NCBI GenBank assembly: GCA_048270185.1
Contig: JBLWTJ010000001.1
Coordinates: 640,001 to 704,000 of the forward strand
Length of the DNA: 64,000 nucleotides
Origin: Bacteriovoracaceae bacterium
Lineage (GTDB): Bacteria > Bdellovibrionota > Bacteriovoracia > Bacteriovoracales > Bacteriovoracaceae
Direction: 5' to 3'
Numbering within the stretch: position 1 is the first letter of the stretch; each line of letters begins with the position of its first letter. The translations under genes and the position numbers were made by a program. The notes under the pieces are model-generated. The model did no database searches, was not told the origin of the DNA, and saw only the letters and a list, made by a program, of their open reading frames with translations. Of this stretch, positions 45,499 to 48,176 are shown in pieces.

Positions 45499-46431
45499 TT
45501 GATGTATAACTTAAGTGAGAATGAACTTATCAAGACAACAGGGTTTGAAATCGATATTGTTTCAGAAATTGAAAATTCTCTAAAACAAATTGACTGTAAA
45601 TCAACACCAGAGTTCTATCTCGATGGCCAAAAAGAAGAGGCCATCAACACTTCTCTTCAAGATTTTTACCAAATATTAAAGTCATTTAGTAATAGTCACA
45701 AAGGCCCTATTACAATTTGTGATATTGGAGCCTCCTATGGAAAGATGGCATTCGTTGCACAAGCTTATTTTCCAAATATAAAAGTCATTAGTATTGAGCC
45801 AGTAAAAAAGAGAATCGATTACGCTATCAATAAATTAAAAAACTCTAAACACGTATTTATTAATGATAGATTTAGGCAAAAATACGTTAGTGAATTTGCT
45901 ATTGATTACTACTTTCTCTACTTTCCTGTTGGAGTTATTTTAGATGAAATAATTGAGGCCATAGAATCCCCAATTATCGCAATAGAAAGCCATGGAGAGC
46001 TTTTAAATCGCTTGGGACATAGCTTCAAGCAAAAGAGACAACTAACAAAACTAATCTCACCTCGTCACAACCCAAACAGCTTTATTTTTTCAGATAAATG
46101 TGAAAGCGTACTCTATCAAGAATTTAAAGAGTTTCTATCAAAAGAGAGTGATTTAATCCTAATTACAAATGAAAAGCCTTGGTATGCAGACAAGGCTGAT
46201 CTTAAATATTTCTTCGATGAAGAAGATCAGATTACACTTGAGCTTATGACGCCTCCACGTACAATCCACTTTAGTAACAATTTAGAAACGATAAAAAGCA
46301 GCGAGCTTGATACTAACGTTCAAGAAATCATTTCCATGCGACGTGAAGGTAAACAAATTGATGGATGCTTTATTCGTAAGATTTTTGTAGATGGAAGTTA
46401 TGAGCTTTCAAGTGGGGTGATTAAGAAGTAA
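45499..46431 (+). CDS. Class I SAM-dependent methyltransferase-like protein
   Basis: CDIGASYG motif I and an acidic residue after strand 2 (ISIE). Confidence 0.65.
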   Translation: MMYNLSENELIKTTGFEIDIVSEIENSLKQIDCKSTPEFYLDGQKEEAINTSLQDFYQILKSFSNSHKGPITICDIGASYGKMAFVAQAYFPNIKVISIEPVKKRIDYAINKLKNSKHVFINDRFRQKYVSEFAIDYYFLYFPVGVILDEIIEAIESPIIAIESHGELLNRLGHSFKQKRQLTKLISPRHNPNSFIFSDKCESVLYQEFKEFLSKESDLILITNEKPWYADKADLKYFFDEEDQITLELMTPPRTIHFSNNLETIKSSELDTNVQEIISMRREGKQIDGCFIRKIFVDGSYELSSGVIKK

Positions 46432-46665
46432 CTCTTTCCCATTGCTCCTGCGGAAACAAAATCGACATAAACGTCGATTTGTTTAAATAGTATTCGAGCT
46501 AAAGACTGGGGAGCTAACACCGCATCATATCTTGCTTCCGCAAGATGCTGCGGATGTTTTCGTAAGATTTTTGTAGATGGAAGTTATGAGCTTTCAAGTG
46601 GGGTGATTAAGAAGTTATGAGCTTTCAAATGGGGTGATTAAGAAGTAACTCTTTCCCATTGCTCC
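46363..46665 (+). repeat. Direct duplication of the methyltransferase gene 3' end, including a 31-bp unit in three copies
   Basis: 46373-46429 is identical to 46559-46615. 46394-46448 matches 46611-46665 with one mismatch. GAAGTTATGAGCTTTCAARTGGGGTGATTAA starts at 46394, 46580 and 46611. Confidence 0.95.
46432..46553. ncRNA. Structured non-coding element, copy A (unknown family)
   Basis: Two hairpins plus an outer TTCCCA/TGGGGA pairing. The stems covary with copy B. Confidence 0.55.
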
Positions 46666-46777
46666 AGAGGCAACAAAGCCGACATAAACGTCGGCTTGTT
46701 GAATATATTTTTTTAGCTAAAGTGCTGGGGAGCCTATAGTGCGTCAAATCTTAGCTTCGCTAAGATGCCGCACTATA
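46649..46777. ncRNA. Structured non-coding element, copy B (unknown family)
   Basis: Same architecture as copy A with compensatory substitutions. The last stem overlaps the lpdA stop codon. Confidence 0.55.
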
Positions 46778-48176
46778 TATTTAGAGGTTTCTTATCAAAG
46801 GCATCAAGAGCAGCTTCTTTAAGCGCTTCAGAATAAGTTGGGTGCGCATGACAAATGCGTCCAATATCTTCAGCTGCAGCTCTAAATTCCATTGCCACAC
46901 AAGCTTCTGCAATTAAGTCAGCAGCACGAGGGCCTACGATGTGAACTCCAAGAACTTCGTCAGTTTCTTTACAAGCAAGTACTTTTACAAAACCAGCAGA
47001 TTCATTTGATGCACGAGCACGTCCACTTGCTTTAAATGGAAATTTTCCTGCTTTATATGGAGTCTTATTAGCTTTAAGCTCTTGTTCTGTTACACCAACT
47101 GAGGCAACTTCCGGCCATGTATAAACAACACCTGGAATTAAGTTGTAGTTAATATGTGGCTTCTGCCCAGCAATAATCTCAGCACAAACAACACCTTCTT
47201 CCTCAGCTTTGTGAGCAAGCATAGCACCAGTTGTTACATCACCAATTGCATAGATATGAGAAACATTTGTACGAAGGTGATCGTCAGTAATAACACGACC
47301 TCTCTCATCTAGGTTTACACCTGCGTTCTCAAGACCAAGGCCATCAGTGAATGGACGACGTCCTACGGCCATTAGGCAGTAGTCACCATCTAGTTTGATT
47401 TCTTCTTCATTCTTTTTGTTCTTGGCCTTAACATGTACCTTGTCGCCTTTTCTAACAACTTCAGTTACACCGTGACCAGTATAGAATTCCATTCCTTGTT
47501 TCTTTAGAACTTTCGTCATCTCTTTTGCACAATCTTTATCCATTGTTGCGAGGATCGAGTCTGCGTATTCAACAACAGAAACTTTTGAACCAAGTCTTAA
47601 AAATACTGAACCAAGCTCAAGTCCGATAACACCACCACCAATAACGATGAAATGCTTTGGAAGAGTATCAAGTTTTAGAGCTTCAGTAGATGTAATGATT
47701 CTTTCTTTATCAATTTCAATTCCAGGAATTGAAGCCGGCTTAGAACCAGTTGCAATGATGAAATTCTTAGCTTTAAGAGTTTCTTCTTTTTCACCAGATA
47801 CTTTAAGCGTATTAGCATCAACGAATGAACCAATACCATGGAAAGTTTCAACTTTATTCTTACCCATTAAGTAAGTGATCCCACCTGAAGTATCTTTTAC
47901 AACTTCAGCAACACGCGCTGCCATCTTTCCGATGTCGGCCTTAACTTTTCCAGTTGAGATACCGTGCGCTTCAAACTCATGAGTCGCTTCGTGAAATTTC
48001 TCACTTGAGTCAAGCCATGCTTTTGATGGGATACATCCAACGTTAAGGCATGTCCCACCAAGTGTATTATACTTTTCTACGATTGCTGTCTTCATTCCTA
48101 GTTGAGCACAACGAACAGCACTGATATATCCACCAGGACCTGAACCAATTATAACAACATCAAATTCTTTACTCAT
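46773..48176 (-). CDS. lpdA: Dihydrolipoyl dehydrogenase (E3)
   Basis: GSGPGG, GGTCLNVGCIPSK, GGGVIGLE, LAHKAEEEG and HAHPT-SE. Confidence 0.98.
   Translation of the reverse strand: MSKEFDVVIIGSGPGGYISAVRCAQLGMKTAIVEKYNTLGGTCLNVGCIPSKAWLDSSEKFHEATHEFEAHGISTGKVKADIGKMAARVAEVVKDTSGGITYLMGKNKVETFHGIGSFVDANTLKVSGEKEETLKAKNFIIATGSKPASIPGIEIDKERIITSTEALKLDTLPKHFIVIGGGVIGLELGSVFLRLGSKVSVVEYADSILATMDKDCAKEMTKVLKKQGMEFYTGHGVTEVVRKGDKVHVKAKNKKNEEEIKLDGDYCLMAVGRRPFTDGLGLENAGVNLDERGRVITDDHLRTNVSHIYAIGDVTTGAMLAHKAEEEGVVCAEIIAGQKPHINYNLIPGVVYTWPEVASVGVTEQELKANKTPYKAGKFPFKASGRARASNESAGFVKVLACKETDEVLGVHIVGPRAADLIAEACVAMEFRAAAEDIGRICHAHPTYSEALKEAALDAFDKKPLNI

Follow-up and report, generated by a model that had tools for sequence, protein, structure and literature searches.

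The 64,000-nucleotide stretch analysed here (henceforth the window; positions 640,001 to 704,000 of contig JBLWTJ010000001.1, assembly GCA_048270185.1, from a Bacteriovoracaceae bacterium) carries two copies, A and B, of a structured element between a 310-aa open reading frame (ORF) and the converging gene lpdA. They are copies of a modular repeat family specific to Halobacteriovorax, and the feature is real and statistically solid. The unit of ~135 nt consists of a 5' box CTTTCCCATTG, a helix (P1) that encloses a hairpin (H1), and then a long bulged hairpin (H2), with an optional upstream module. In the window these parts and their neighbours lie as follows.

45499..46431, plus strand: upstream ORF, 310 aa, no Pfam family
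46373..46429, plus strand: direct repeat 1, the final 57 nt of the upstream ORF
46429..46559, plus strand: copy A, covariance-model span (114.4 bits, E 1.6e-26)
46434-46444: 5' box CTTTCCCATTG of copy A
46444-46448 with 46510-46514: P1 of copy A, GCTCC/GGAGC
46454-46484: H1 of copy A
46520-46553: H2 of copy A
46559..46615, plus strand: direct repeat 2, the ORF tail duplicated as non-coding sequence, its TTTTCG joined to the ...GCGGATG that ends copy A
46580..46646, plus strand: tandem duplication of the 31-nt unit GAAGTTATGAGCTTTCAAATGGGGTGATTAA (2.2 copies, 97% matches), nested in the duplicated gene tail between A and B
46646..46779, plus strand: copy B (119.7 bits, E 6.7e-28)
46651-46661: 5' box of copy B
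46661-46665 with 46729-46733: P1 of copy B
46671-46701: H1 of copy B
46735-46777: H2 of copy B
46773..48176, minus strand: lpdA (dihydrolipoyl dehydrogenase), the gene docked by copy B
46773-46775, minus strand: stop codon of lpdA, TAG (CTA as read), paired within the H2 outer stem of copy B

The stop codon of the upstream ORF (TAA, 46429-46431) abuts the 5' end of copy A directly and lpdA, read on the minus strand, has both A and B downstream, where a 3' untranslated region (3'UTR) would be. Repeats 46373-46429 and 46559-46615 are 100% identical over their 57 nt, so that the locus reads tail-A-tail-B; despite these identical tails, A and B themselves are only ~78% alike. Copy A has AAACAAAATCGAC/GTCGATTTGTTT as the arms of H1 and copy B has CAACAAAGCCGAC/GTCGGCTTGTTG; the loop ATAAAC and an extra A are common to both, the asymmetric internal loop of H2 is the same in the two copies, and CTTTCCCATTGCTCC ... 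GGGGAGC is present in each. Compared with shuffled sequences, A and B fold on both strands with z values of -4.3 to -5.9, equalled by none of 200 shuffles. The original prediction, made from the letters of the window, had placed two structured copies at 46432-46553 and 46649-46777, with the lpdA stop within a stem of the second; sequence, H1/H2 architecture and loops are as it described, and the CTA does pair in the outer stem of H2. Its extent of ~125 nt fell short, the repeat being ~135 nt long and the 57-nt ORF tail being duplicated as well. The 40-aa minus-strand ORFs that lie over each copy were dismissed as coding by inspection, on account of indels that are not multiples of three and of pairwise compensatory variation. 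Orthologs of the 310-aa ORF fall into two allele classes, with C-termini ...SSGVIKK and ...SSGEIKKAP before the stop; in a related genome (G004) this stop is lost and the frame runs ~14 codons into the element, ending at a TAA in the H1 loop.

BLAST and nhmmer searches found further copies on four contigs of the window's own genome (G000). Eleven copies were aligned, RNAalifold gave P1 and H1, H2 was added manually, and the covariance model built from these detected 15 copies in the own genome (E <= 1.8e-8). Thirteen Halobacteriovorax genomes were compared (the own genome and 12 others), and a search of 121 genomes gave full-length matches in 10 of these 12, with 1 to at least 24 copies per genome and 20-24 each in G002, G004 and G011; with scoring confined to 27 candidates per genome, each count is a minimum. 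Beyond the genus the same search returned only weak, mostly partial matches (best E 2.4e-5). The set used below comprises 115 copies from 10 genomes of the genus, aligned to the covariance model, with copies taken from five close species. With one genome per species, the 5' box pattern was multi-copy in Halobacteriovorax records only (13 matches at 11 loci in two records), and elsewhere it gave 34 single-match loci, for which our own chance estimate is ~35.

The proposal that the element belongs to no known family held up against Rfam. The best match was STnc430 for positions 45500-47800 of the window, searched with E values up to 10 (24.2 bits, gathering score 47), and Phe_leader for 12 further loci totalling 37.6 kb (32.1 bits, gathering score 55), and all matches were sub-threshold and inconsistent between copies. 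We found no description of the family in the literature on repeats of Halobacteriovorax and Bacteriovorax marinus, including the accessible text of the H. marinus SJ genome paper (PMC3526173). It is an undescribed family, though of the known kind of repetitive extragenic palindromes (REPs) and bacterial interspersed mosaic elements (BIMEs), and not a riboswitch. The prediction had named what would speak against it, namely no further copies and no covariation, and here the own genome alone holds 15 copies and covariation is strong; its fallback, that these were only diverged tandem terminators, is too weak for a family dispersed over about 37 distinct gene ends.

In the 34 modelled pairs, 90.5% of the cells hold standard pairs, against 69.6% after column shuffling and 33-43% once partners are displaced by 1-3 columns. 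Two-sided changes occur in 32 of the 34 pairs, and the observed values were reached by none of 500 shuffles. P1 covaries from GCTCC/GGAGC to GGCCT/AGGCC, GCGCC/GGCGC and other pairs, while H1 and H2 each occur in subtypes, H2 keeping conserved mismatches such as A:A and U:C. Together with the slow divergence of stems at orthologous loci (see below), this covariation upholds the earlier view that the structure is under selection. The same cannot be said of the mutually exclusive pairing that had been proposed with it. Its GCTCC/GGAGC arm, which is P1, covaries, but the TTCCCA/TGGGGA helix is paired in 72.8% of cases versus 72.9% after shuffling, with 296 of 500 shuffles as high, and the idea of an RNA switch falls with it. 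Strong covariation, the absence of a matching known family and the alternative pairing that can be drawn in GCTCC-type copies would all fit a trans-acting small RNA family or a ligand- or temperature-sensing switch, as suggested at first. We nevertheless consider such a role highly improbable, given an alternative helix that does not covary, a location after stop codons and not in 5' leaders before genes, promoter-like sites no more frequent than chance (2 found versus 2.4 expected), loops and linkers that are the least conserved parts and offer no evident ligand pocket or seed region, and copies that are many and highly diverged in sequence.

The build of the family is modular. Copies from more distant species lack H1 and consist of P1 and H2, G004 has an H2-less array, G011 has a partial, H2-only match, and the own-genome copy C4:220658, without a 5' box, combines a clear H2 with a diverged H1. 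An additional module upstream, or other small repeats sitting within the loops of H1 or H2, are seen in some copies. The inner stem of H2 starts with an A-T pair in 106 of the 107 scored copies, followed by T-A in 99 of 106, and closes on a loop of 3-4 nt. In many copies it is flanked by CGTC, which is paired with GACG and covaries to CGAA, CAAA, CAGC and others; GTAG, CTAG or ATAG precedes H2 in some copies, but lies within the paired outer stem. The 5' end is often nnnAAC, the 3' junction is G followed by TT, and the two ends are unpaired in the supported structure. Among the nested repeats, another small family of ~50-70 nt, with the core ...GGCTCCTGCC...GACATAC..., occurs in element loops and beside native terminators of several genomes. 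It was seen in the H1 loop of the second element of L117 (G002), in an H2 loop at L115:1469-1598, upstream of the element in L109 and at rpsD of G009 (L178). The nesting suggests that hairpin loops are preferred landing sites.

The element stands in a constant relation to one neighbouring gene. On the H2 side the neighbour is an opposite-strand ORF in 113 of the 115 copies, and in 88 the stop of an ORF of at least 100 aa falls within the last 45 nt of the model or at most 5 nt past its end. These docked stops, whose offsets cluster at -8, -5 and -1, that is inside or against the H2 outer stem, are TAA in 55 cases, TAG in 33 and TGA in none (a crude genome-wide count gives 1471, 572 and 234). 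Read on the strand of the docked gene, the order is stop, H2, P1 strand, linker, H1, P1 strand and box, which is the layout of a 3'UTR. On the other side the ORF is converging in 71 of the 115 copies and co-directional in 31, and no ORF is nearby in 11. The 37 distinct docked loci are mostly core genes, among them groEL, groES, rpsA, rpsD, EF-G (fusA), ffh, metG, ychF, ahpC, relA/spoT, tex, an ATP synthase subunit, lpdA, nqrF, etfA, metK, AdoHcy hydrolase, guaA and glutamate dehydrogenase (gdh).

Conservation in place could be assessed at 98 pairs of orthologous loci from six close species, taking the 4-fold codon sites of the docked gene as reference. Identity was 0.69 at the 4-fold sites and 0.77 in the element (0.83 in paired and 0.72 in unpaired columns), the element being the more conserved in 65 of the 98 pairs, and at some loci the stems were 99-100% identical where 4-fold sites had fallen to 0.5-0.6. 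In the 48 pairs with an element identity of at least 0.8, the 4-fold sites had diverged by 0.269, the paired columns by 0.044 and the unpaired ones by 0.149, i.e. stems diverge about six times slower than 4-fold sites; the changes at the same locus comprised 36 compensatory, 15 one-sided but pair-keeping and 44 pair-breaking ones. Stems appear to be kept by purifying selection at each locus. Within a genome, on the other hand, identity between copies has a median of 0.60 (803 pairs). All three pairs at or above 0.95 are tandem neighbours, as are five of the six at or above 0.90, and the sixth, a dispersed pair, stands at 0.927. Judging from these values, dispersed copies within a genome are old, unlike an active population of miniature inverted-repeat transposable elements (MITEs) or REPINs.

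Taken together, we read the element, with moderate confidence, as a REP/BIME-like structural module of the 3'UTR that stabilises or ends the mRNA. A 3'UTR role is favoured because of the strict co-orientation, the docking on stops, the identity of the docked genes and the conservation of the stems in place. Each copy is oriented to one gene and docks on its stop by way of H2, the triplet itself belonging to the H2 palindrome. In the most likely scheme H2 and P1 would hinder 3'-to-5' decay, and H1 (a GC stem with UUUGUUG after it) would serve where genes converge as a terminator that is weak and works roughly both ways. Gain, exchange and tandem duplication of copies take place with no short target duplication of fixed length, and these events leave behind either a loss of ~10-17 nt from the native 3'UTR or a second copy of 29-117 nt from the neighbouring gene's tail. 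Given that no dedicated transposase was identified, we infer that they spread by gene conversion, unequal recombination or microhomology-mediated copying, and the tail-A-tail-B arrangement of the window would be one such event.

Two further observations speak for this reading. The gene-sense strand folds slightly better (61 versus 38 copies, mean difference 1.2 kcal/mol). By relaxed criteria (stem cut at the GC core, at least 5 T in 8 nt), 89 of the 115 copies have a gene-sense hairpin with a T-rich tail inside the element, and in 59 copies it is the only T-tailed hairpin in the element and the 160 nt downstream.

Several observations weigh against a role in the mRNA end. Counts of G:U versus A:C (54 versus 51) give no clear strand signal, which is partly an alignment effect of the H1 and H2 subtypes. 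A standard terminator scan leaves H1 unflagged, and the U-tract of H1 is poor. The second strand of P1 lies beyond this U-tract in both directions and P1, bracketing H1, can therefore form only in read-through RNA or in single-stranded DNA; efficient termination at H1 would preclude it in RNA and yet it covaries strongly, so that read-through RNA or single-stranded DNA would be the better fit. In two metatranscriptome contig sets, covering 5-10% of the sampled words, contigs lie on lpdA and on the flanks of the element; inside it they reach no further than two short pieces of copy B (46652-46792). No contig runs through a whole copy, copy A has no coverage, and nothing on transcription of the element follows from them. 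Copy A, as well as similar copies in G011 and at locus C2:437254 of G000, stands beyond a native terminator or a duplicated tail, and if that terminator works these copies would be outside the 3'UTR of the docked gene. Some orthologous loci now have another variant in place of the original element, with identities of 0.5-0.67 where 4-fold sites show 0.8-0.9. The filter at 0.8 biases the comparison with 4-fold sites, though not the contrast of paired with unpaired columns, related pairs are not independent, and part of the high conservation could stem from gene conversion among copies and not from function. Lastly, the docked genes are only presumably highly expressed, a judgement from gene identity and not a measurement.

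Some of the same data would suit a role at the level of DNA, of the BIME type, in which the potential to form a cruciform or hairpin is selected and the element serves as a site of binding or processing for gyrase or for an IHF-like or histone-like protein, relieving supercoils or insulating converging genes under heavy transcription. The structure is equally possible on both strands and G:U versus A:C shows no strand signal, P1 covaries although it brackets a terminator-like hairpin, 71 of the 115 copies lie between converging ORFs, and the docked genes are core genes; roles of REPs and BIMEs in supercoiling are named in the accessible part of a study of REPs (PMC3733652). This role offers no obvious reason for the strict orientation or for docking on stop codons, 31 of the 115 copies lie between co-directional genes, and no binding motif was identified in the element, for which reasons we hold it to be quite unlikely.

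Orthologous sites with and without the element were compared at four loci. At lpdA, all that separates the two stops in G009 and G008 is a plain two-way terminator, AAAAAGGCACC-CTAA-GGTGCCTTTT. One B-type element extends from stop to stop in G002 and G004, that of G004 being the same B variant as in the window and that of G002 a variant with a different H1, and G011 shows the order tail-A-old tail-terminator, with a copy A identical to that of the window in the aligned columns. A mangrove metatranscriptome contig joins 46403 to 46777 through 58 other letters and reads as the lpdA locus of a relative, apparently empty of both copies. The rpsD, ffh and gdh loci likewise have the element in some species and lack it in others. 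At all four of these loci the C-terminal residues of the docked protein stay as they were, and the stop is the exact starting point of the element. At two of the loci, TAG stands in some filled alleles (G000 and G004 at lpdA, G002 at gdh) in place of the TAA of the empty ones. About 10-17 nt of native 3'UTR are replaced at filled sites; past the element, rpsD and gdh still have their native terminator, which lpdA has lost. The rpsD locus also has tandem repeats before its native terminator, of period ~15-28 nt, AAATGGCTAAGAATAAGAGTCTAAAAAT in G000 (L023:1360-1470) and AAGGTTAAGAATAAA in G011 (L092), which differ between the two genomes in copy number and unit.

A second kind of footprint consists of direct repeats of 29-117 nt that flank nine copies at about five loci and consist of tail sequence from the gene next to the 5' box (the count omits a tenth flagged copy, at the partly masked G011 locus L103). 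These are copy A of the window and the same locus in G011, locus C2:437254 in G000 and G011, an oligopeptidase locus in G002, G008 and G011, and another locus of G002; at C2:437254, G009, G008 and G002 have empty sites. The downstream tail repeat begins in every case as a run of T immediately behind H2 (...GCGGATG, then TTT...). The upstream one ends at the TAA joined to the 5' box in the three loci without the extra module, and at the oligopeptidase and G002 loci a spacer and the upstream module stand between the upstream repeat and the 5' box. Tandem arrays of the element are also found, with five copies at a 117-nt period in G004 and three copies in G006. The G004 ortholog of C2:437254 (L165, G004:C10:188097-188323) has no element and carries instead a ~228-nt insert, bounded by inverted GGGTACGTCGATACTTTTCGAC and placed right after the stop TAA; the G011 ortholog keeps half of this GGGTACGTCGATACTTTTCGAC repeat.

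At the oligopeptidase locus the tail repeats of the three species are near-identical within each genome and differ between genomes, which points to concerted evolution of these repeats. A recent insertion, as might be read from the identical 57-nt repeats of the window, is weakened by this observation at an orthologous locus, and under concerted evolution the identity of the window repeats does not date the event. Plain tandem duplication also fails as the origin of tail-A-tail-B, since there are loci with a second tail followed by the native terminator and no second element (lpdA in G011; C2:437254 in G011 and G000), and since the two elements mostly do not belong to the same variant. Candidate routes are microhomology-mediated copying and recombination between alleles followed by conversion.

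Presence and absence among close relatives (lpdA, rpsD, ffh, gdh and C2:437254), the tandem arrays of G004 and G006, the 29-117-nt direct repeats at nine copies and the solo or H2-less modules are also what purely selfish mobile DNA would leave behind. Such an element (a MITE, REPIN or PATE) would use its hairpins as the single-stranded form recognised by a RAYT, another HUH nuclease or a transposase; covariation would then reflect mobility, and docking a choice of target together with the removal of harmful insertions. The other small repeats nested in H1 or H2 loops speak in the same sense, as does P1, which is impossible in RNA terminating at H1 and favours a fold in DNA. RAYT-like Y1 transposase genes (Y1_Tnp) are also present in 12 of the 13 genomes of the genus. 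The own genome has four RAYT-like ORFs (209-240 aa, PF01797 at 33-40 bits), located as follows.

L162, G000:C3:364629-367958: RAYT-like ORF
G000 C1:821330-821959: RAYT-like ORF
G000 C1:563186-563863: RAYT-like ORF
G000 C1:1332794-1333516: RAYT-like ORF

At least three of the four stand near short palindromes of their own that differ from the element, two of them with such palindromes on either side. Genes and palindromes together make up a classical REPIN-RAYT set, distinct from the present element. One RAYT-flanking repeat, GTAGGGTGCCATGCTCCTTTGGTTTCGCAC, forms inverted doublets at several other loci. The suggested link of the element to a RAYT found no counterpart in the own genome, where none of the four ORFs adjoins a copy, and the link to a reverse transcriptase fared no better, RVT_1 being present in 5 of the 13 genomes and missing from the copy-rich G002, G004 and G011. 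The TnpB domain PF07282 was found in none of the 13 genomes, while a control search of 14 reference genomes matched 8. Terminal inverted repeats are absent, the two ends of the element not being complementary, and the flanks of the 115 copies show no fixed short target duplication, only the 29-117-nt repeats and the neighbours within tandem arrays; no transposase linked to the element was identified in these searches. Added to this are the lack of near-identical dispersed copies, the stems that diverge about six times slower than 4-fold sites at loci kept since speciation, and the co-orientation with one gene in 113 of 115 copies. A purely selfish nature is hence a possible but, on balance, somewhat unlikely explanation.

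If the 3'UTR reading holds, one lineage of Halobacteriovorax would have equipped some 35-40 ends of core genes with a shared, selected RNA or DNA structure that contains the stop codon. The products of these genes include chaperonins, ribosomal proteins, EF-G, SRP54 and enzymes of respiration and central metabolism. The family would then add a well-documented bacterial case of hairpin repeats docking on stop codons. With filled and empty orthologous sites, compensatory evolution in place and natural variation of its modules (H1, H2, P1 and 5' box), it is a tractable natural system in which to study the effects of REP-like elements on their host, and its tail duplications and replaced native 3'UTRs, left without a linked transposase, make one ask by what means elements of this kind are copied. 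A bolder version, which we regard as unlikely, is that of an installed control module. Here a process that senses the end of translation would place a cassette with its own TAA or TAG on the stops of core, heavily expressed genes, and H2, P1 and the 5' box would form a protein platform that jointly governs the stability or storage of these mRNAs, for example between attack and growth phase. Were this so, a predatory bacterium would have a post-transcriptional regulon defined by a mobile 3' element, and the duplicated gene tails would be the footprint of an undescribed, transposase-free route of insertion.

Among known systems, several can be compared by their defining features. Riboswitches have two exclusive conserved helices in a 5' leader, neither of which the element shows. 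Integron attC sites have complementary R''/R' ends (RYYYAAC ... GTTRRRY) and form arrays beside an integron integrase; the element often has nnnAAC at its 5' end and G followed by TT at its 3' junction, but these ends are unpaired in the supported structure and its copies are dispersed at the ends of housekeeping genes. A PATE derived from IS200/IS605, or a TnpB omega RNA, depends on a TnpA(Y1) or TnpB partner and has ends that derive from those of the IS, and TnpB is found in 0 of 13 genomes here; a SINE-like retroelement or a retron would be expected to co-occur with a reverse transcriptase, and the element does not. Closer is the intrinsic bidirectional terminator, to which H1 is akin in having a GC-rich stem between A-rich and U-rich arms, and at lpdA the element stands where close relatives hold a plain terminator of this sort. 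It differs in the poor U-tract (UUUGUUG or UUGUUGA), in the conserved 5' box, P1 and H2 that have no part in termination, and in the native terminator kept beside the element at rpsD and gdh.

Hairpin MITEs such as ERIC/IRU, Correia/NEMIS, RUP and BOX are transcribed into mRNA ends and affect mRNA stability. The element resembles them in length (~100-150 nt), strong folding, location next to coding regions and, in the case of BOX, modular build. Terminal inverted repeats and a fixed target duplication (TA or another) are lacking, however, and the genomes searched yielded no insertion sequence related to it. These MITEs are named in the background section of PMC3733652. With REPIN-RAYT systems the family shares hairpin repeats inherited vertically for long periods and genomes that contain RAYT-like Y1 genes. 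The RAYT-like genes here are nevertheless flanked by unrelated REPs, and the element has no inverted doublet and no near-identical copies; the REPIN-RAYT unit is a palindrome of 20-40 nt with a conserved unpaired GTAG tag, while the element is ~135 nt long and its tag is paired.

The nearest relatives in form are REPs and BIMEs. As far as the accessible text of Di Nocera et al. (2013, PMC3733652) describes them, REPs lie mostly less than 20 bp from the 3' ends of ORFs, between converging or co-directional genes, and GTAG REPs frequently provide a TAG stop with their termini. CGTC-tagged REPs, according to the same text, have stems of 8-9 bp that start with A-T, T-A, loops of 4-5 nt, an unpaired terminal CGTC, a 3-nt CCA tail at the other end and no linked transposase. 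The element recalls the CGTC REPs, as compared with this printed description only, in an H2 inner stem that starts A-T, T-A, a loop of 3-4 nt, a CGTC that flanks it in many copies and the lack of a linked transposase gene, and departs from them in that its CGTC is paired and covaries and that a CCA-like triplet stands on the CGTC side, not at the opposite end. From REPs and BIMEs in general it differs by its size and build (~135 nt with three helices and a junction, against 20-40 nt), by copies that are few (10-25 per genome), highly diverged and strictly co-oriented with the docked gene, and by head-to-head dimers not being usual. Of the options listed in the original prediction, 'REP/REPIN-like' comes closest. 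What the family has in common with REPs and BIMEs is a set of dispersed, imperfect intergenic palindromes, mostly beside the 3' ends of ORFs and with termini that can supply the stop, a modular mosaic build, and proposed roles in mRNA stabilisation, termination and supercoiling.

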